Origin: Candidatus Nomurabacteria bacterium RIFCSPHIGHO2_01_FULL_40_20
GTDB lineage: Bacteria; Patescibacteriota; Minisyncoccia; Phycocordibacterales; UBA9973
Length of the DNA stretch: 49,302 nt
Reading direction: 5' to 3'
Assembly (NCBI GenBank): GCA_001786835.1
Contig: MFTO01000001.1
Span: forward strand, 1-49,302
This document shows, one piece after another, positions 776-16,354 of the stretch. Both the position numbers and the translations under genes were made by a program. Under the pieces are notes generated by a model, which saw only the letters and a list, made by a program, of their open reading frames with translations, did not search any database and was not told the DNA's origin. How positions within the stretch are numbered: the first letter of the stretch is position 1; each line of letters begins with the position of its first letter.

Positions 776-3700
776 ATGCAAAAGAGGAAAAGGCAAAGCG
801 TTCGGCTGTCTAAAAATATTGTGCCGATAAAATATGATATCAAGCTTCATCCGGACTTGGAGAATTTTACTTTTAGAGGTGAGGAAGTCATAACCGTTGA
901 CCTAAAAAAAGAAACTAAAGAAATTACTCTCCACTCTAAAGAGATAGATATAGAAACTGCGAGAATCGGCGAAGAGTTTACTAAAAAGATTTCTTATAAT
1001 CAAAAATCTGAAACAGCTACTTTCGTATTCGCAAAAAAAATCAAAAAAGGAATGCATACGCTTACCATAACATTTCAAGGCATTCTAAACGACAAAATGC
1101 GCGGTTTTTATAAGAGTTCCTATATCTACGAGGGCAAGGTGCACCATATCGCGACCACGCAGTTTGAGGCCACAGACGCGCGCCGAGCTTTCCCTTGCTT
1201 TGACGAGCCGGCGCAGAAAGCGGTTTTCCATGTGTCGCTCGTCGTGCCGAAAGGCAAAACTGCAATCTCAAATACTCTGCCGATTTCAAAAATTGAACAT
1301 GAAGCTGGTTTTGAGGTTATAAAGTTTTCTCCCACTCCCAAAATGTCCACCTACCTTCTGGCTTTTATCGTCGGAGATTTTGAATACATTGAGAAAAAAT
1401 CAAAACGTGGTGTGCTGGTGCGAGTGTATACAACAGCCGGCAAAAAACATCAAGCAAAGTTTTCCTTGGACACGACGGTGAAAATGTTGGATTTCTATGA
1501 AAAATATTTTAATATTCCGTATCCGCTCAATACGCTCGACATGATTGCGATTCCGGATTTCTCTTCGCTCGCTATGGAAAACTGGGGCGCAATTACTTTC
1601 CGCGAAGTAGGGCTTTTGGTGGACGAAAAACACACTTCCACTGGGAGCAAGGAATTAATTGCCGAAGTCATCGCGCATGAACTCGCCCATCAATGGTTTG
1701 GGAACTTGGTTACTATGGAGTGGTGGACACACCTCTGGCTCAACGAAGGCTTCGCTTCCTATATTCCCTACCTTGCGATAGAAAAAGTTTTCCCAAAATG
1801 GAATACTACCTTCTGGCTTTTATCGTCGGAGATTTTGAATACATTGAGAAAAAATCAAAACGTGGTGTGCTGGTGCGAGTGTATACAACAGCCGGCAAAA
1901 AACATCAAGCAAAGTTTTCCTTGGACACGACGGTGAAAATGTTGGATTTCTATGAAAAATATTTTAATATTCCGTATCCGCTCAATACGCTCGACATGAT
2001 TGCGATTCCGGATTTCTCTTCGCTCGCTATGGAAAACTGGGGCGCAATTACTTTCCGCGAAGTAGGGCTTTTGGTGGACGAAAAACACACTTCCACTGGG
2101 AGCAAGGAATTAATTGCCGAAGTCATCGCGCATGAACTCGCCCATCAATGGTTTGGGAACTTGGTTACTATGGAGTGGTGGACACACCTCTGGCTCAACG
2201 AAGGCTTCGCTTCCTATATTCCCTACCTTGCGATAGAAAAAGTTTTCCCAAAATGGAATATTTGGGAGAGATTTGTCACCAATTCCCACGGCACCGGCTC
2301 GGCGCTTCGCTTGGACTCTCTTGTCAACACCCACCCCATAGAAGTAGAAGTGTACCATCCGGACGAAATCGGAGAGATTTTTGATGAAGTTTCTTATGCT
2401 AAAGGCGCGTCCGTTATCCGTATGCTCGCCGAATACATTGGCGAGAAAAATTTCCGAGATGGCTTGCGTTATTATTTAAAAAAGCACAGTTATAAAAACA
2501 CCGAGACTGTGCACCTCTGGCAAGCTTTTGAAAAAGTCTCTGGCCTACCTGTGCAAAAAATGATGCAAAACTGGACAGGCAAAAGTGGTTATCCGCTCAT
2601 CCGCGCTTCACTCACCTCACCACTTGGTACTCCGAGTACCAAGTTGATACTTTCGCAAGAGCGATTTTTCCTGAGTCCTGTTTCTAAAGCCAAAAGTAAA
2701 GACAAAACGATTTGGCAAATACCAATAACTCTACAATTCAAAAATTCGTCTAAAAATTTAGTGCAGAAACACTTTTTGAGCCGACTTTCGCAAGCTGTCG
2801 AGCTGAGAATGAGCGATTTTTCACCAGAAAAATACGCGACGGCGAAAAAAGTTGTTTCAAACGATTTTTGTATTAAAATTAACGCAGATGAGGCCGGATT
2901 TTACAGAGTGGCATACAGCAAAGAACTTTTGGATAAGCTCCACTCCCCTGTCGCTAAAAAAATCCTCTCTCCCATAGATCGGCTCGGAATTGTGCGGGAT
3001 TTGTTTGCTCTTGCGGAAGCTGGAGAAATTGAGACTACAGAAGTTTTGCAATTTCTCTCTGCTTACAAAAATGAAGATAGCTTTATAGTTTGGACGGAAA
3101 TCGCCGGAGGAATTTCTCGCTTAGAACAATTACTCGCAAAAACATCTGCGAAAGATGATTTGAAGAAATTTATCATCAAACTTTTCTTGCCAGTTTTTAA
3201 AAGATTGGGTTGGAACAAAAAGAAAAACGAAGAACACAGCGATACCCTTCTGCGCACTATTGCCATCTCTAAATTAGGCAGAGCCGGACACTCTAGCGTT
3301 ATCAAAGAAGCTCGCAAAAGATTTGCTTCCTTGAAACGAGGAGCGCATATGAACCCTGATTTACGGAGCGTAATTTATAGGGTTGTCGCTATTAGGGGAG
3401 GTAAAAAAGAATTTGATTATTTTATTAAAAAATACAAAGAAGAAACTTTACACGAAGAAAAGAATCGCATCGGAGGCACGCTCGGAGATTTCCAAAGTGA
3501 TAAAATTCTCTGCGAGACGGCAAACTTTGCGCTCTCCCCGCATGTTCGCACGCAAGATACCCCAAGTATCCTAGCGGGTCTTGCGCTCAATCCTCTTGGG
3601 CGAATGATTTGGCTCAAATGCATAAAATACAACTGGGATACTTTCCTTTCCCGCTATGGAGATGGCGGACATACCCTTTCTCATCTAATTCAACCGATAG

Positions 3701-3896: not shown

Positions 3897-4802
3897 ATGA
3901 TGCGAGAATTAAGAGCAGGAAAAGGAGATTCTTTCATATATGAGGAAGATGTAACGCCAGCACTCGATAGATATCTCGAAGAAATTGGTAAGATACCTCT
4001 ACTTACTTCAGATGAAGAAGTTGATTTGGCAAAAAAAATAAAACAAGGAGACCAAAAAGCTCTAGAAAAATTAGTAAAAGCTAATCTACGTTTTGTAGTA
4101 AATGTGGCCAAACAATTTAGAGGTAGGGGGTTATCTTTTCAAGATTTAATAAATGAAGGTAATGGAGGGCTAATAAAGGCCGCTGAACGTTTTGATGAAA
4201 CGAAGGGTTTTAAATTTATTTCCTACGCAGTTTCTACAATTCGCACAAAAATAAATGAAGCTGTAATGGAATTTGGACGACTTACAAGAAAGCCCACTAA
4301 TGTTAATAAGGGCTTTACAAAACTTAACGAAACAAAACTCCAAAAGGAACAGGAATTAGGACAAGAATTATCTGTATATGAATTAGCTCATCTACTAAAG
4401 GAAAATCCAGATAAATCTTATATAAAAAATTTAGACCAAACATTAGACATTAGTACTAAACATACATCAATTGATGCACCTATAGTGTTTGACGACAAAG
4501 ATTCTCCAGCTATGGTAGACAACTTGGCGGACACATCTTCAAAAAATCCAGACTACGAATTAGAACACAACGAATCTTTAAAAAAAGAAATCAATACTAT
4601 ATTAAAAACATTTCCTGAAAAACAAAAGCAAATAATAGAACTATTTTTCTTTGATCCTGAACTTGGTTCCTTAAAAAACAAAGAAGAGAAATTTAAAGCA
4701 ATAGCTACTAGAATTGGTAGCGAAGTTAAGTGGACAAAAAGAGGGTATCGTATGGCAATAGAAAAATTGAAGAACTATTCACGTTTAAGAGAATATTTTT
4801 AG
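3897..4802 (+). CDS. Sigma-70 family RNA polymerase sigma factor (short RpoD/RpoS-like), divergent in regions 2.3-2.4 and 4.2
   Basis: LDRYLEEIGKIPLL, LVKANLRFVVNVAKQF, DLINEGNGGLIKAAERFDETKGFKFISYA. Confidence 0.9.
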   Translation: MMRELRAGKGDSFIYEEDVTPALDRYLEEIGKIPLLTSDEEVDLAKKIKQGDQKALEKLVKANLRFVVNVAKQFRGRGLSFQDLINEGNGGLIKAAERFDETKGFKFISYAVSTIRTKINEAVMEFGRLTRKPTNVNKGFTKLNETKLQKEQELGQELSVYELAHLLKENPDKSYIKNLDQTLDISTKHTSIDAPIVFDDKDSPAMVDNLADTSSKNPDYELEHNESLKKEINTILKTFPEKQKQIIELFFFDPELGSLKNKEEKFKAIATRIGSEVKWTKRGYRMAIEKLKNYSRLREYF

Positions 4803-7728: not shown

Positions 7729-7753
7729 GCGCGTTGATTTTGGCGGCGAGGAT
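7729..7753. repeat. 25-bp direct repeat of the phhB 3' end (other copy 8536-8560)
   Basis: gcgcgttgattttggc[g/a]gcgaggat, 1 mismatch. Confidence 0.85.
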
Positions 7754-8205
7754 TATTTAATATCAACCATATAAGCTTTTAAAAATGTTTCAATAGCGTC
7801 CACTGTGGACTCATTTAATTTAGCATTACTTTCAGCTACCCACTTTGCGAAATTGTATAATTCCTTTGTATCTACCTCTAACCACTTACCATTTTTGTGT
7901 AAAAAATAGAACATTGTTGTCATTGCAATGCGTTTATTTCCATTCTTAAAAGGATGATTTTTAATCATAAGGTAGAAAAGAATTGATGTTTTTTTAAGAA
8001 GCCCCGGATAAAGATCTTTGCCACCAAAAGTTTGAAACGGCGCCTCAATAGAGCGCTCAAGCGCGTTTGTATAACAAGTGCTAAAGTCTGGAATTGGTTC
8101 GGACCAAGTCATCGTCTCTTGAGCAAGACTGTGAGCTACATATTGGACATCTTTGACACTAATGCGCATTTTATTCTTTACCCAAGAGTTTGAGAGTTTC
8201 TCCAT
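7753..8205 (-). CDS. Fic/Doc family death-on-curing protein (true start possibly at MRISVKD)
   Basis: HPFKNGNKRIA Fic/Doc motif; APFQTFGGKDLYP. Confidence 0.9.
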   Translation of the reverse strand: MEKLSNSWVKNKMRISVKDVQYVAHSLAQETMTWSEPIPDFSTCYTNALERSIEAPFQTFGGKDLYPGLLKKTSILFYLMIKNHPFKNGNKRIAMTTMFYFLHKNGKWLEVDTKELYNFAKWVAESNAKLNESTVDAIETFLKAYMVDIK

Positions 8206-8449
8206 ACTCCTTTATTACTTTTTCGACTACTTGCTCAATGTCTTTCTTTTTTTCTTCGGTAAGAATACCTGTGTCATGAAAGAATTTATTACGGATAAAT
8301 TCCATAGGGATAGCGTATGCACGCCCTATCTTTTCTGCCGGCACCTGCCCTTTTTTTATTTTATTAAAAACAGCAATTCTGCTAATGCCAAGCATTTTTG
8401 CCAACTCGGCAACAGACACATATTTTTCTTTTTTATCCTTATTTTTCAT
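8171..8449 (-). CDS. Excisionase-like HTH protein, probable antitoxin of Doc
   Basis: YVSVAELAKMLGISRIAVFNKIKKGQVPAEKIGRAYAI; C-terminal IKEYGETLKLL; ttgttaacc/ggttaacaa inverted repeat upstream (8491-8520). Confidence 0.8.
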   Translation of the reverse strand: MKNKDKKEKYVSVAELAKMLGISRIAVFNKIKKGQVPAEKIGRAYAIPMEFIRNKFFHDTGILTEEKKKDIEQVVEKVIKEYGETLKLLGKE

Positions 8450-8527
8450 AGGTTTTTCTTTGTTAATCTCTGTATGCTGTATATTAACAATTGTTAACCT
8501 ATTTGTAAAGTGGTTAACAATATAACT

Positions 8528-8860
8528 TTATTTATGCGCGTTGATTTTGGCAGCGAGGATGAAGTCGTTCTCGGAGAGTCCACCGATGGCGTGGGTGGAG
8601 AGCTCTAGTTTTACTTTATTGTAGTTTATGTGGATATCTGGATGGTGTCCTTCCATTTCCGCAATATCAGCCACGAGGTTTACAAAATTTATAGCACCGA
8701 TAAAGTCCGCGAATTTGAATTCTTTGGAAATTTGCTTCGCATCCTCGCTCATAGTCCACCCCTCCACATCCGGCAGATAATTTCTCGCTTCTTCCGGAGT
8801 AAAGGGGTCTATATCCCCTCCCTCGCATGGTATGCATTTTTTCTTTAATAAGTCGTTCAT
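8528..8860 (-). CDS. phhB: Pterin-4-alpha-carbinolamine dehydratase
   Basis: EGHHPDI...STHAIGGLSENDFILAAKI. Confidence 0.95.
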   Translation of the reverse strand: MNDLLKKKCIPCEGGDIDPFTPEEARNYLPDVEGWTMSEDAKQISKEFKFADFIGAINFVNLVADIAEMEGHHPDIHINYNKVKLELSTHAIGGLSENDFILAAKINAHK

Positions 8861-8872
8861 AGGGCAATTATA

Positions 8873-9598
8873 CTATTTTAACCAACGATTTACCACTTCT
8901 TCTAAATGGTCTAAATTTTCAAGTATAAATAATTTTCTATGAAATTCATGAGGACTTATATCTAAATTTCTGATTACTTTTTCATCATAAGGGACTTTAA
9001 GAACTTTTTCAGAGAAAGCATTTTGTAATTCCCCACTCGAAGACATGAGCCCAGTACCAAAAGCTTTTATTTCTCCATCTTCTTTTATCAGTCCAAACTC
9101 ATAGCCATACCAGCCAAGTTTAGCAATATGGTCTTTATTTTCCTTATTTTTTGCTTTCACTATTGCTCGTCCAAATTTTTCCAGAATTCTTGCATATTGC
9201 GGAATAGCCAAGAATGGAACATGCCCGAAAACATCATGAAAAATATCCGGCAAAGGTGTGTAGTCTAAATCTTTCTTCTTGCGGATAAAGTTTGTAATTC
9301 TGTGTTTTTTATCCGCTAAGGCTCCGACCCACTCTACATTGTTTTCATAAGTTATATCGGTCATTTCTATTTCCCAACTTGTGAGCTTCTTTAATTTTTT
9401 ATTAATTTCCAGAAAGTTAGGAATATACTCTGTGCTCATCCCGAGCGCATCCCAACCTTGTTTGTGTAATTTTGTGGCTTTACCTCTTAAATTTTTCATT
9501 TGTTTTTCGCAAAGCAATTTCCAAACCTCATTCTCTTCTTTGGAGAACTTTTTGAATGGAATTACCCCACCTCCTTGTATAATTTTTTGGTTTTTCAT
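8873..9598 (-). CDS. phhA: Phenylalanine 4-hydroxylase
   Basis: DYTPLPDIFHDVFGHVP and WYGYEFGL (His-His-Glu iron ligands), GLMSSSGE; adjacent to phhB. Confidence 0.9.
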   Translation of the reverse strand: MKNQKIIQGGGVIPFKKFSKEENEVWKLLCEKQMKNLRGKATKLHKQGWDALGMSTEYIPNFLEINKKLKKLTSWEIEMTDITYENNVEWVGALADKKHRITNFIRKKKDLDYTPLPDIFHDVFGHVPFLAIPQYARILEKFGRAIVKAKNKENKDHIAKLGWYGYEFGLIKEDGEIKAFGTGLMSSSGELQNAFSEKVLKVPYDEKVIRNLDISPHEFHRKLFILENLDHLEEVVNRWLK

Positions 9599-9624
9599 AA
9601 TTAAATAGATTAAAAATAGATAAT

Positions 9625-9646
9625 AAAAAAACGCCCAGCGGGCGGT
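9625..9646 (-). terminator. Attenuator terminator upstream of phhA
   Basis: cgccc-gct-gggcg followed by U7 on the minus strand. Confidence 0.7.
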
Positions 9647-9675
9647 CTTTTATGTTTAGAAATACAAACAAAAAA

Positions 9676-9738
9676 TTACCGCTCCGCTGGGCAGAGATAA
9701 TAATTCTTTGAATTTACGATTCTAAATTTATTCACCAT
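9676..9738 (-). CDS. Putative Tyr-Tyr leader peptide MVNKFRIVNSKNYYLCPAER
   Basis: 20-codon ORF (ATG 9738 or GTG 9735) between a TTGACA-N17-TAGATT promoter and the phhA terminator; its 3' end is complementary to the terminator. Confidence 0.7.
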   Translation of the reverse strand: MVNKFRIVNSKNYYLCPAER

Positions 9739-9741
9739 ATA

Positions 9742-9770
9742 AATCTATACAATATATCTTCTTCTGTCAA
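9742..9770 (-). promoter_or_regulatory. Sigma70 promoter of the phhAB leader
   Basis: TTGACA (9770-9765), 17 nt, TAGATT (9747-9742). Confidence 0.65.
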
Positions 9771-10409
9771 TTACCTACTGACTAATACTTTTATTCCTAT
9801 GGCGACCAATACAGCGCCCATTGCTCGGTCAATTATATGCCTCCATTTAAAAATCTTTTTCTGGAACACTTTATGAGAAAATAAAAAGGAAACTATGGTA
9901 AACCAGACGAAGGTCATAAACATCATCTCCACACCATAAATTACTTTCACGAATTGAGGTGTTGCAGGGCCGACGACTTGAGTAAACAAAGCCACGAAAA
10001 ACAAAGTTGCTTTAGGATTTAAGACATTCACCAAGAATCCATTTTTTATCGCATCAAAAGGAGAGAACGAATCCGCATTTTCTTTAATTGTTATTTTTTC
10101 TAATTCTCCATCTGTTGAAGGTTGGGATTTCAGCATTTTATATCCGAGGTAAAGAAGATAAATCGCGCCAAGAACTTTTATGATATTAAATAAAACTATT
10201 GATTTGGAAATTACTAAACCCACACCTGCCAAAGAATAAAAAACATGCACGCTTATTCCAAGCGCCACACCGAGCGCTGTATAAATGCCAATTTTGCGCG
10301 AATAAGACAGACTGTTTCGGCTCACCACGATAAAATCAGGTCCCGGACTCATCACTGCTAAAAGATGAGCTATTACGACGACGGCAAATTGTGCTAAAAA
10401 TGGGGTCAT
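9771..10409 (-). CDS. LysE/RhtB family amino acid exporter
   Basis: SPGPDF, GAIYLLYLG, NVLNPKATLFF. Confidence 0.93.
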   Translation of the reverse strand: MTPFLAQFAVVVIAHLLAVMSPGPDFIVVSRNSLSYSRKIGIYTALGVALGISVHVFYSLAGVGLVISKSIVLFNIIKVLGAIYLLYLGYKMLKSQPSTDGELEKITIKENADSFSPFDAIKNGFLVNVLNPKATLFFVALFTQVVGPATPQFVKVIYGVEMMFMTFVWFTIVSFLFSHKVFQKKIFKWRHIIDRAMGAVLVAIGIKVLVSR

Positions 10410-11005
10410 AATCTCATCTTAGCATATTTTTTGCGGATATATTTCATAAACAAAAATACCAAGCCAAGCAAGATAGCCATCAGTATTATATTGCGGGCGA
10501 CGCCGATGCCGTTTAGAATGGAATCAATTCGGCTTCGGAAATACCAACCGAGCGCAAGATAAAGTGGAATGTAAATCAAAAGCGCGCCAGCGTCGAGTAG
10601 TAGGAATTTTTTAAACGGGATTTTGAGATAGCCAGCGAGGAATGGCCCGAGAAATCGAAGTTGTATTAAAAACCGGGAGCAGAAAATAACTTTGTTGATA
10701 TTTTTTTGTACCCACTCCATTCTGGACTCCACTTGTGAAGCAAAAATTCTTTTATATGCGCCTGTAATAAATCTATTCCCTCCTCGCGCTAAGAGATAAA
10801 TAGTGATATCAGACGCGATAACTCCGGTAAAAATGACCGGAAAGAGAATTAAACCGTTCAAATGCGGTCCTCCAGCGAGATACCCGAGAATAATAAAAAC
10901 ACCTTCCTCTGGAATAGGCACCAGCACATTGGCGGCAAAGGATAACAGCCATACTCCAAAATAAGAAAGCGCGCCTATTTGATTTATAATTTCTTGCGCC
11001 TCCAT
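10406..11005 (-). CDS. DedA family membrane protein
   Basis: VPIPEE...GYL, SRFLIQLR..GPFLAG. Confidence 0.88.
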   Translation of the reverse strand: MEAQEIINQIGALSYFGVWLLSFAANVLVPIPEEGVFIILGYLAGGPHLNGLILFPVIFTGVIASDITIYLLARGGNRFITGAYKRIFASQVESRMEWVQKNINKVIFCSRFLIQLRFLGPFLAGYLKIPFKKFLLLDAGALLIYIPLYLALGWYFRSRIDSILNGIGVARNIILMAILLGLVFLFMKYIRKKYAKMRL

Positions 11006-11008
11006 TGT

Positions 11009-11908
11009 TTAGATATTTTCTCGCAGTTTGGCTATTTTGTAAATCGCAAAAACCAAGAGAATCGCTGCGACCCACTGCGTCGGCGCGAGCACGGTTTTAT
11101 ACAAAATCATATCTATCAAAATCGCAATAAACGGAAAAGTTAGTTCTAAGATAGTTGTGATGTGAACTGGAGTTCGCGCAAGCCCTTTGTAATAAATGAG
11201 GAGCGCTACCATGCCGGTGGATACTGCAATCAATGCAAAGAGGCCAAATTGAGGCGCTGTCGGCGCGGAAAGTGTCGCGCCTTTGCCCATAATTAAAAGA
11301 AGCGGTAGGGCTAAAAACAAAGTAAACAAAAATCGATAAAATGTGCTGACTTTCGCTTCAACTTTTGTCAAAAGCATTTTTGAAAAAGTAGTGCTAGAAC
11401 CCCACGCGAAAGCGGCGCCAAGCGCAAAGAGGGCGGCAATGATAGTGCCTTCGCCTGTCTCCCAATTCACCGCGCCATTTTTAAACGTCACAAAATAAGC
11501 AGAAACAAGCGCGAGCACAGCCCAGACTATGTATCGCCGGTCAAGTTTTTCTTTCAAGAAAATAGAAGCAGTCGTGATAGCAAAAATTGGTTGGAGTTTT
11601 TGAAGCAAAAATACAACAGAGAAAGAAATAAAATGCACTTTGAGTAGCGCGGTGGTGAAAAAAAGTGTGCCCAAAAGCCCGCTTAGAGCGGATATGAGAA
11701 TTATCAGAAACCATTCGTGTTTGGTAAGGTCTGTTTTGAATATACTTTTATAAACAAAAGGCAAGAGAATTATAAAACCAAAAAGATGTTCAAAGAATAT
11801 TATCGTGATGGGTGGGAGCGAATACAGATGTCGGCGGATTACTCCGTCTAGCGCCCAGAGTAGCGCGGCGGTAATAATAAACAGTGGTCCAGTATAATTT
11901 TTTAACAT
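11009..11908 (-). CDS. DMT/EamA family transporter
   Basis: About 10 TM segments, LQPIFA...FLKEK, duplicated EamA halves. Confidence 0.88.
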   Translation of the reverse strand: MLKNYTGPLFIITAALLWALDGVIRRHLYSLPPITIIFFEHLFGFIILLPFVYKSIFKTDLTKHEWFLIILISALSGLLGTLFFTTALLKVHFISFSVVFLLQKLQPIFAITTASIFLKEKLDRRYIVWAVLALVSAYFVTFKNGAVNWETGEGTIIAALFALGAAFAWGSSTTFSKMLLTKVEAKVSTFYRFLFTLFLALPLLLIMGKGATLSAPTAPQFGLFALIAVSTGMVALLIYYKGLARTPVHITTILELTFPFIAILIDMILYKTVLAPTQWVAAILLVFAIYKIAKLRENI

Positions 11909-14729: not shown

Positions 14730-15290
14730 TCAAGACTTAGACACATTGCATATATATTTATAGTAGCCGTTCTTTATTTCTCGTTCCCATTCTGGACTAC
14801 CTATTATTTTATTTTTACCTAATTCAAGGTCTCTCAATTTTTTGAACCATTTGTTAATACTCGTATTCCCACCCATAGTAAGTGGGTGTTCTGTTCTACT
14901 GGAAGGATAGAATCTATTTTGAGTAATATGCCCAAATAAATCTCTAACTTGAGATCTAAAATAAAAAATGTGTGTATTAGTTTTTCCTTCTTCTACCAAA
15001 GCATGTCCTATATACTCTATTCGAACAGTTCCTAATCCTTCTACTTTATGAACAATATAACCCAATATTGTCTCCATGTTATTTGACAGACCTACTGGAG
15101 ATGATGGTAAAGAGAAGCTAATTTTAAAAACTGGGTCCTCCGGTATTGAAAAAGTACCTTCATTACTTAGATCTCTTTTTAGATTTTCAGATTCTTCGAT
15201 TCGCATTTGCCTTGATTTATTCCCTTGTTCCTCTTTGTGTTTCCTGAATATTGTCTGGTTTTCTGGTTTTAAAAAATCTTCTTCTTTCAT
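14730..15290 (-). CDS. Hypothetical protein (AT-rich); start MKEEDF overlaps the trpS stop (ATGA)
   Basis: ORF track 14730..15410 trimmed to the ATGA-coupled start. Confidence 0.6.
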   Translation of the reverse strand: MKEEDFLKPENQTIFRKHKEEQGNKSRQMRIEESENLKRDLSNEGTFSIPEDPVFKISFSLPSSPVGLSNNMETILGYIVHKVEGLGTVRIEYIGHALVEEGKTNTHIFYFRSQVRDLFGHITQNRFYPSSRTEHPLTMGGNTSINKWFKKLRDLELGKNKIIGSPEWEREIKNGYYKYICNVSKS

Positions 15291-16237
15291 ATATTTATAT
15301 TTACTCCTATTTTTTCTTTTATTTCGGCCATTTTGGCGGAGGCTACTTTTTTTGCTTTTTCGCTTCCTTCTTTTAAGATTTTGAGCGCTTCCGGTAGTCT
15401 TTTTTCCCACTCCTTCCTTTTTTCTCGCATTGGCGCGATGAATTTCTCTAGGTCTTCTATTAACATTTCTTTTAACTCTTTATACTTGCCGGTTTTTTCT
15501 TCGTAAAGAGGCAAAAGTTCGGAGGCAGGTCGCAAGAGGTTGTGAATAGCATAAACATTTTTTGGAATTCCCTCGCTGGAATCGGTGACAATACTCATCA
15601 CGCATTTTTTAATTTCATCATACTCGGCAAAAAGCGGAATAGTGTTATTATAACTTTTAGACATTTTTTGTCCGTCAGTGCCGGGCACCACTGCGACATC
15701 TTTCATAATCATCGCTTCAGGAAGTTTAAAGGTTTTACCGAAAATACGATTGAATTTTTCCGCGGTATCACGCGCAATTTCTAAATGTTGTTTTTGGTCC
15801 GCTCCCACCGGCACAATATCCGGACTGTAGAGTAAAATGTCTGCCGCCATCAACATCGGATAATTAAAAGTTCCGACATCGATTTCTTTATTTTTTGCTT
15901 CCGCATCCTTGAAAGCATGAGCGCGCATGAGGTATGGCATGGTCGTAATTGTTTCAAAAATCCAAGCAAGTTCTGTGTGCTCGGCTATGTCCGACTGTTT
16001 GAAAATTATCGCTTTCTTTGGGTCAAGTCCGATAGCTAAGAAATCAAGCAAAACCGCCATAATATTTTCCTTCATTTCTTTTGGATTCTGCACAGATTTC
16101 ATAGCATGATAATCCACAATAAGCGCATAGACTTCGTATTCACTTTCTAAATCCACCAATTGCTTCATCATGCCGAAATAGTTGCCAATATGGGGTCGGC
16201 CCGAAGGCTGAATTCCTGACAACAATACTTTTTTCAT
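15287..16237 (-). CDS. trpS: Tryptophanyl-tRNA synthetase
   Basis: SGIQPSGRPHIGNY, YPMLMAADIL, VPVGADQKQH, KMSKS; start trimmed to MKKVLLSG. Confidence 0.97.
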   Translation of the reverse strand: MKKVLLSGIQPSGRPHIGNYFGMMKQLVDLESEYEVYALIVDYHAMKSVQNPKEMKENIMAVLLDFLAIGLDPKKAIIFKQSDIAEHTELAWIFETITTMPYLMRAHAFKDAEAKNKEIDVGTFNYPMLMAADILLYSPDIVPVGADQKQHLEIARDTAEKFNRIFGKTFKLPEAMIMKDVAVVPGTDGQKMSKSYNNTIPLFAEYDEIKKCVMSIVTDSSEGIPKNVYAIHNLLRPASELLPLYEEKTGKYKELKEMLIEDLEKFIAPMREKRKEWEKRLPEALKILKEGSEKAKKVASAKMAEIKEKIGVNINI

Positions 16238-16354
16238 ACCATCTATACTAACATACTTCGGCCTACTCAGCATAAATATATTTGTCCACATTTTAATAAC
16301 ATAGAACTCCCCTATTTACCTTTCTCTTTTTTTCTCTTGTGCTAGGATGAAAGT

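Follow-up and report, generated by a model that had tools for sequence, protein, structure and literature searches.

A conserved tyrosine-codon leader before phhA in an ultra-small bacterium and its likely role as a transcription attenuator

The phhA gene of Candidatus Nomurabacteria bacterium RIFCSPHIGHO2_01_FULL_40_20, encoding an aromatic amino acid hydroxylase, is preceded by a short upstream open reading frame (uORF) with two adjacent tyrosine (Tyr) codons, and the last codons of this uORF are complementary to the whole of an intrinsic terminator that stands before phhA. We propose, with a probability of roughly 80%, that this element works as a transcription attenuator of the ribosome-mediated, leader-peptide kind, sensing charged tRNA-Tyr and regulating phhA and phhB; the proposal is drawn from sequence conservation, covariation and modeled folds. 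The DNA analyzed, hereafter the window, is a 49,302-nt stretch of contig MFTO01000001.1 (GenBank assembly GCA_001786835.1, positions 1 to 49,302, forward strand), and the source genome, from an uncultured bacterium, is a 0.55-Mb assembly in 21 contigs that is 78% complete. Leader-peptide attenuation is a textbook mechanism for Trp, Phe, His, Leu, Thr and Ile/Val, and the four-region attenuator model, with its alternative 1:2, 2:3 and 3:4 pairings, is well established.

Results

Anatomy of the phhA leader

All elements of the leader lie on the minus strand, between phhA and an upstream LysE-family gene that ends at 9771. They are, with the two genes that the leader is proposed to control:

9765..9770, minus strand: -35 hexamer TTGACA (motif scan; a similar hexamer is found by eye at the same place in relatives)
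9742..9747, minus strand: -10 hexamer TAGATT, separated from the -35 hexamer by a 17-nt spacer (motif scan)
9676..9735, minus strand: leader uORF, an open frame of 19 codons plus stop from GTG 9735; ATG 9738 would add one codon (20)
9697..9702, minus strand: adjacent Tyr codons TAT TAT, proposed as the sensing codons, with a 4-nt gap to E1
9678..9692, minus strand: E1, 15 nt within the last uORF codons, complementary to the whole terminator (fold and covariation)
9647..9677, minus strand: spacer between E1 and T; its U-run, following E1, and its A-run, preceding T, pair with each other and lengthen the long hairpin
9632..9646, minus strand: T, the terminator stem sequence, with a local 5-bp hairpin at 9644-9632
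9625..9631, minus strand: U7 tract of the intrinsic terminator (sequence and terminator scan)
8873..9598, minus strand: phhA, aromatic amino acid hydroxylase, 241 aa, the putatively regulated gene (PF00351 Biopterin_H, E 2e-33)
8528..8860, minus strand: phhB, pterin-4a-carbinolamine dehydratase, 110 aa, 12 nt after phhA (PF01329 Pterin_4a, E 3e-32)

The initial annotation of this region had placed a promoter at TTGACA-N17-TAGATT, and this is the top promoter-like site, with 10/12 matches, in a 3.5-kb scan (8000-11500). It had also drawn a uORF at 9738-9676. The frame, the Tyr pair and the stop codon (TAA at 9678-9676) of that uORF stand; its start codon probably does not. ATG 9738 and GTG 9735 share one frame and lie 3 and 6 nt, respectively, after the -10 hexamer. 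In 16/18 leaders the uORF start is found by eye 6-8 nt after the -10 hexamer, the exceptions being L084 (14 nt) and L005 (unclear -35), and this spacing favors GTG 9735 over ATG 9738. The leader therefore probably begins at GTG 9735 and is read leaderless, with a transcription start that we infer solely from the spacing. A Shine-Dalgarno-like 4-mer (-20 to -4) precedes just 38 of the 304 long open reading frames (ORFs) of the genome, so that its absence before the uORF or phhA is uninformative. The same genome-wide count gives the impression that translation initiation in this organism is mostly Shine-Dalgarno-independent.

The complementarity that the initial annotation described between the uORF end and the entire terminator is borne out. 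E1 (9692-9678) and T (9646-9633) form 14 pairs with one bulged A (9683), followed by the U7 tract and then by the phhA start codon (ATG at 9598). RNAfold adds inner pairs between the U-run and the A-run of the spacer, which lengthen E1:T into a single hairpin abutting U7, and T alone can form its 5-bp hairpin followed by the U tract. The folding energy of the 172-nt leader is -47 kcal/mol, far below that of its shuffles (-28.0 +/- 3.8; z = -5.0; 0/200 shuffles as stable). In terms of the classical model, E1 corresponds to regions 1+2 and T to regions 3+4, and 1+2 are complementary to all of 3+4; in the modeled folds the four 5' bases of E1 would act as region 1 and its center and 3' half as the antiterminator region 2.

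The leader is conserved upstream of phhA

For conservation we compared the 320 nt upstream of phhA at 18 loci with a PhhA of at least 53% identity and with upstream DNA. L050 (no upstream DNA) and L076 (frameshifted contig) were left out, and L043 duplicates L004, as L049 duplicates L042. A Tyr-containing uORF and a terminator lie directly before phhA in 16/18 loci (14/16 distinct). Twelve of the 18 (L003-L010, L040, L043, L044 and L048; 11 distinct besides the window) have the design seen in the window, which we call type 1. Another four (L042, L046, L047 and L049; three distinct) have a different structure in which the Tyr pair is kept, which we call type 2.

The order of elements in type 1 is a TTGACA-like -35 hexamer, a -10 hexamer, ATG or GTG, about 12 codons, the Tyr codons, one codon and E1, followed by the U-run, a variable loop, the A-run, T, five to eight U and then phhA. 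Both runs of the spacer are found in 12/12 type-1 leaders. The start codon falls by eye 6 nt after the -10 hexamer in 10/12 and 8 nt after it in 2/12, and the U tract of the relatives is 32-50 nt upstream of phhA. The genes upstream of the leader vary from locus to locus, which argues that the element belongs to phhA.

Fourteen leaders could be aligned to each other: the 12 distinct type-1 leaders, window included, together with L080 and L084. The last Tyr codon is TAT in 14/14, and the codon preceding it is also Tyr (TAT or TAC) in 11/14; four of the 14 have a third Tyr codon further upstream. TAT and TAC alternate at the third positions of the leader Tyr codons. For comparison, Tyr makes up 3.5% of codons in the 304 long ORFs of the genome. 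The distance from the start to the last Tyr codon is 12 codons in 10/14 leaders, 11 in one, 13 in two and 22 in the copy before tyrS that is described below. E1 and T are highly conserved, and it is the E1 sequence that sets the peptide motif following the Tyr pair. The conservation of Tyr uORF and helix switch that the initial annotation had proposed to look for in relatives is present.

A covariance model of the type-1 leader (R1) matches once in the source genome (G000), in 10/150 other genomes of the genus and in 0/150 other genomes of the order. Of the ten genus matches five precede inspected phhA homologs, and the match in G547 scores as L005 does. Three weak copies of 38-55 bits, L085 (G444), L086 (G487) and L087 (G452), have decayed E1:T complementarity and decayed terminators; behind them stands a short Tyr-containing ORF or a TIGR00725-like gene, neither phhA nor tyrS. 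These weak copies are probably relics of gene loss. The frameshifted contig of L076 holds two inverted, frameshifted copies of leader and phhA (R1 at 923-1011 on the plus and 4357-4447 on the minus strand), a doubling that is probably an assembly or read-error artifact.

Covariation between E1 and T

In a MAFFT alignment of the 12 distinct type-1 leaders 92.8% of 167 E1:T cells pair, and sliding the partners by one to three columns lowers pairing to 33.5-56.9%. Three central pairs, between the center of E1 and the T hairpin loop, change on both sides and leave 0/36 cells unpaired; their variants are AGC/GCU, AAC/GUU, GAU/AUC (resting on L005, a genome flagged unpublished) and AGU/ACU, together with wobble forms. 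The T loop is free to vary, yet E1 tracks it, which argues that the long-range pairing matters. When the 14 leaders are taken on the R1 alignment, which includes L080 and L084 and was fitted to the structure, 94.4% of 196 cells pair and 6/14 pairs are doubly changed, values reached by 0/500 shuffles. Judged from these alignments, the E1:T pairing is under selection.

Modeled folds switch with the position of the ribosome

Fifteen leaders (12 type 1 and three type 2) were folded, each ending at the base that adjoins the U tract, with a ribosome mask whose edge lies 12 nt from the start of the A-site codon. In the ribosome-free state 15/15 leaders have a hairpin that reaches to within 1 nt of the 3' end, as the long E1:T hairpin in type 1 and as 1:2 plus 3:4 in type 2. 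A ribosome placed on the stop codon gives a local T hairpin flush with the 3' end, again in 15/15. When the last Tyr codon occupies the A site, 10/12 type-1 leaders have 6-7 unpaired nt before the U tract, and when the A site holds the codon preceding it, 12/12 have 3-4 unpaired nt. For the window leader the modeled energies are -37.3 kcal/mol in the free state, -21.5 and -29.5 in the stalled states and -7.3 for the local T hairpin.

The modeled folds of type 2 are those of a textbook attenuator, with 1:2 and 3:4 in the free RNA, 2:3 under a stalled ribosome and 3:4 once the ribosome has reached the stop codon. The stalled state leaves 12 nt unpaired in L042 and 8 nt in L046, and L047 makes a small alternative hairpin.

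The initial annotation had held that stalling at the Tyr pair frees an antiterminator. The stalled folds do open the base of the terminator, but there is no simple freeing, and the long E1:T hairpin of the untranslated RNA is itself predicted to be a terminator.

A copy before tyrS and Tyr leaders in other bacteria

One R1 match (L084 in G013, 59 bits) precedes a 474-aa tyrS (TIGR00234, 294.9 bits against a cut-off of 113.8 bits), in a genome whose search gave no PhhA match. This leader has four consecutive Tyr codons and compensatory changes in both arms of E1 and T, and its fold switches when the last Tyr codon occupies the A site. About ten codons at the start of this tyrS resemble the phhA start of L007 and L048, so that the cassette was seemingly grafted from phhA; the sequences suggest that recombination moved the attenuator from phhA to tyrS in G013. 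The regions upstream of tyrS in 27 further genomes of the genus gave no Tyr leader plus terminator, two of them having a YY-containing ORF without a terminator, and the tyrS case is therefore single (1/28). The gene itself, at 1617-3041, is the sole tyrS of its genome and has about 70 extra residues (query 101-168) absent in relatives.

Outside the close relatives, a metagenome contig of 45% GC (L064) has TTGACA-N16-TATAAT, an ATG 8 nt later and three Tyr codons, with a segment that pairs across the terminator; its modeled fold switches as in type 1. In Hymenobacter translucens (Bacteroidota, L034) a 25-codon uORF with five Tyr codons and a strong terminator lies before a phhA homolog. A phhA homolog is present in 57/61 Hymenobacter genomes, and in the group with 75-100% identity a Tyr-rich uORF (five Tyr within eight codons) is found in 14/14 loci, 12 detected by script and two (L089 and L095) by eye. 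In many Hymenobacter genomes this paralog stands in tandem with a second hydroxylase paralog of 51-54% identity. At L106-L117 the second paralog is preceded, at a distance of about 60-210 nt, by a conserved uORF of about 28-30 codons that has no Tyr run and overlaps a segment complementary to a strong terminator.

PhhA as a probable source of tyrosine

The closest solved structures to PhhA are bacterial phenylalanine hydroxylases (E 7e-32), and its best NCBIfam match is phenylalanine 4-monooxygenase. Residues H121, H126 and E167, which we take to be the iron triad of metal-binding His, His and Glu, are invariant in 23 homologs. A large protein collection holds about two dozen PhhA homologs at 51-64% identity, and the nearest phhA loci come from ultra-small Patescibacteria (Paceibacterota, Nomurabacteria, Minisyncoccia). 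The gene is rare: PhhA was not found in 40 sampled relatives of this genome, and a 400-genome sample of the phylum has it in one genome, at 32% identity.

In five phhA-bearing genomes (the source genome and four others) prephenate dehydrogenase (PF02153) was over its cut-off in 0/5 and chorismate synthase (PF01264) was found in 0/5. Both searches were positive in 14/14 control genomes, and a class-Ib synthetase domain was found in 5/5 of the phhA-bearing genomes. No match of tyrosyl-tRNA synthetase (TyrRS) size was found in the source genome. H. translucens likewise gave no PF02153 match, and a Ferruginibacter without such a leader has one. With the de novo route to Tyr not found, PhhA is the sole visible Tyr source, from imported phenylalanine (Phe). 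Bacterial phenylalanine hydroxylase can serve Tyr synthesis according to work on Dyella, Echinicola and Legionella (PMC7311316). The role of Tyr-biosynthetic enzyme that the initial annotation gave to PhhA is supported by these searches. A class-Ib tRNA synthetase gene of tryptophanyl-tRNA synthetase size lies at 15287-16291 on the minus strand, about 6 kb from phhA, and, going by contig numbers, seemingly does so too in the genomes of L003 and L004.

Discussion

A model for attenuation at phhA

In our model transcription would begin at or next to the uORF start codon, and the leader would probably be translated leaderless. With no ribosome on E1, E1 would pair with the entire T, and the long hairpin abutting U7 would terminate transcription. 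When Tyr is sufficient the ribosome would reach the stop codon and cover E1, so that T would form its local hairpin and transcription would again end. When Tyr is limiting we infer that the ribosome stalls once a Tyr codon occupies its A site, hiding 2-5 nt at the 5' end of E1; the remainder of E1 would pair with the 5' arm and loop of T, and the last 3-6 nt before the U tract would stay unpaired. With the base of the terminator open, RNA polymerase would read through into phhAB, and PhhA would then convert imported Phe to Tyr. The E1 hairpin with its U-run may serve to pause the polymerase and couple it to the ribosome. A switch that opens at low tRNA-Tyr charging fits a Tyr-supply role of PhhA, and it fits tyrS as well.

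Evidence against the model

Several observations weigh against attenuation by Tyr codons. Two of the 18 phhA loci, L041 and L045, are without the leader. The window uORF has merely two Tyr codons, and in 3/14 leaders TGT, TGC or CAT replaces the first of them (Cys in two, His in one). Stop codons occur in frames +1 and +2 of 14/14 and 13/14 leaders while frame 0 is open in 14/14, a circular test, since the way in which the ORFs were called guarantees an open frame 0. The start codon is the nonstandard GTG in 7/14 type-1 leaders, and leaderless translation from GUG is an assumption here. The type-1 leaders are related, and the covariation counts are therefore not independent events. As for the folds, they depend on the assumed ribosome edge at 12 nt from the A-site codon, and the terminator persists with the last Tyr codon stalled in L009, L044 and the type-2 leader L047. 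The minimum-energy folds of the Hymenobacter leaders retain the terminator in every state, with no antiterminator seen. Among distant phhA loci, mostly from Chloroflexota metagenome-assembled genomes (48 listed and 47 scanned, L002 being without a start), a uORF with two Tyr within three codons occurs in three (L034, L035 and L064), a terminator as well in L034 and L064 only, and this rate is no higher than chance could give.

Two further points concern the enzyme and its genome. PhhA falls below the NCBIfam equivalog cut-offs (209.8 against 247 bits for NF008877 and 180.2 against 264.75 for TIGR01267), so that hydroxylation of Phe to Tyr is its presumed activity. The source genome is 78% complete, and tyrA, chorismate synthase and TyrRS are therefore not found rather than absent.

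Alternative explanations

The leader could instead be a structured RNA that switches in response to a protein, a small ligand or uncharged tRNA, with the open frame as a by-product. The strong conservation of E1 and T would be expected of such an RNA, the post-Tyr peptide motif is set by E1, and translation of the uORF is a prediction. What makes this explanation improbable is that no Rfam family matches, T-box included, and that three leader types with unrelated helices have in common only Tyr codons and an attenuator layout. The fixed distances from the -10 hexamer to the start and from Tyr to E1, and the alternation of TAT and TAC at third positions, also speak for a translated frame.

If the frame is translated, it might still report general translation speed or another amino acid, or TATTAT might be an internal -10 box. 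The small number of Tyr codons in the window and the Cys and His substitutions at the first of them would agree with a signal other than Tyr, and TTTAGA-N18-TATTAT (9726-9697) makes 9/12 promoter matches. We regard this explanation as very unlikely, since the last Tyr codon is invariant, the Tyr run reaches four codons before tyrS and five in Hymenobacter, and both controlled genes serve Tyr supply. The internal -10 box in particular is rejected: by eye the relatives do not retain a -35-like hexamer at a suitable distance, and the Hymenobacter Tyr runs lie in a GC-rich context with no -10 box.

Least credible is a plain intrinsic terminator of the upstream LysE-family gene, with a separate promoter for phhAB and an incidental uORF, for although the long hairpin with U7, 80 nt past the LysE stop codon, is a competent terminator alone, the element keeps its place before phhA (once tyrS) across differing upstream genes, the promoter that separates the upstream gene from the uORF is conserved, a scan of the 26 nt from the U tract to the phhA ATG gave no promoter-like site, and Tyr codons, frame and uORF length are all conserved.

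Relation to known systems

Rfam 15 gave no match at threshold in the region, Phe_leader (RF01859) scoring 20.2 and 16.2 bits against a gathering value of 55, and no match except a tRNA at seven related loci. In the full texts searched (supplements and many subscription papers lay outside) we found no tyrosine leader peptide and no phhA attenuator. The phhA leader is most likely an attenuator of classical logic in which the signal (Tyr) and the targets (phhAB, and once tyrS) are new.

In Escherichia coli trpL-trpEDCBA and pheL-pheA, as outlined in PMC11802643, a short uORF with codons for the product, alternative pairings and a terminator precede the first gene. The phhA leader would share all three features and would likewise terminate both when untranslated and when fully translated. 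Unlike trpL and pheL, it would have Tyr as its signal and a hydroxylase making Tyr from Phe as its target, and it has two regulatory codons only in a uORF that is probably leaderless. E1 also complements the whole of T, loop included, so that the untranslated RNA is predicted to form one long hairpin and not two.

The leader before tyrS in G013 would be the Tyr counterpart of E. coli pheM, whose cognate codons attenuate the pheST synthetase operon (PMC11802643). In contrast to pheM-pheST, it is found at 1/28 tyrS loci of the genus and looks like a phhA leader grafted there along with about ten initial phhA codons.

Leaderless regulatory uORFs are described for Corynebacterium glutamicum trpL, Deinococcus deserti and the polycysteine uORFs of mycobacteria (PMC3890552, PMC4007540, 10.1101/834739). 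The phhA leader would resemble them in a transcript that begins at the start codon of a short regulatory uORF by which downstream genes are attenuated. The C. glutamicum aroR leader is leaderless as well, and its peptide AroR, with Phe-Tyr-Phe the closest Tyr-containing case found, is reported in PMC11802643 as unaffected by Tyr availability; here, in contrast, the run is of Tyr only, and the phylum and target gene are others.

The same genes, phhA and phhB, are under control of aromatic amino acid status in Pseudomonas and Shewanella, where accounts in PMC1173090 and PMC3223726 describe regulation by PhhR/TyrR. PhhR and TyrR are proteins that activate a catabolic operon in response to substrate, whereas the leader would use RNA and the ribosome, respond to lack of the product and follow a biosynthetic logic.

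We consider it somewhat more probable than even that Tyr-codon leaders are a recurrent, undescribed class of attenuator that marks phenylalanine hydroxylase as the Tyr supplier in TyrA-less bacteria. Its form in this lineage would be a minimal portable cassette of promoter, leaderless uORF and an E1 complementing a whole palindromic terminator, moved together with the first phhA codons onto tyrS. If this is so, symbiont-sized genomes of about 0.6-0.9 Mb keep classical amino acid sensing by ribosome stalling, and ultra-small bacteria with few regulators would use sensing by RNA and ribosome. The identity of leader codons would be an independent clue to the role of an enzyme, arguing here that a divergent hydroxylase makes Tyr and does not degrade Phe. 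A cassette of less than 150 nt would be a compact model that combines probable leaderless translation with a two-element switch, and its place before tyrS would be a case of natural retargeting.

Genes adjoining phhAB

On the 3' side of phhB (7753-8449, minus strand) a helix-turn-helix gene (92 aa) and a Fic/DOC gene (150 aa) overlap and resemble a toxin-antitoxin pair. At the phhA locus L077 (G556) the gene after phhA, at 2373-2792, appears, as judged from its N-terminal sequence only, to be QueD-like (6-pyruvoyl-tetrahydropterin synthase) and not a dehydratase.

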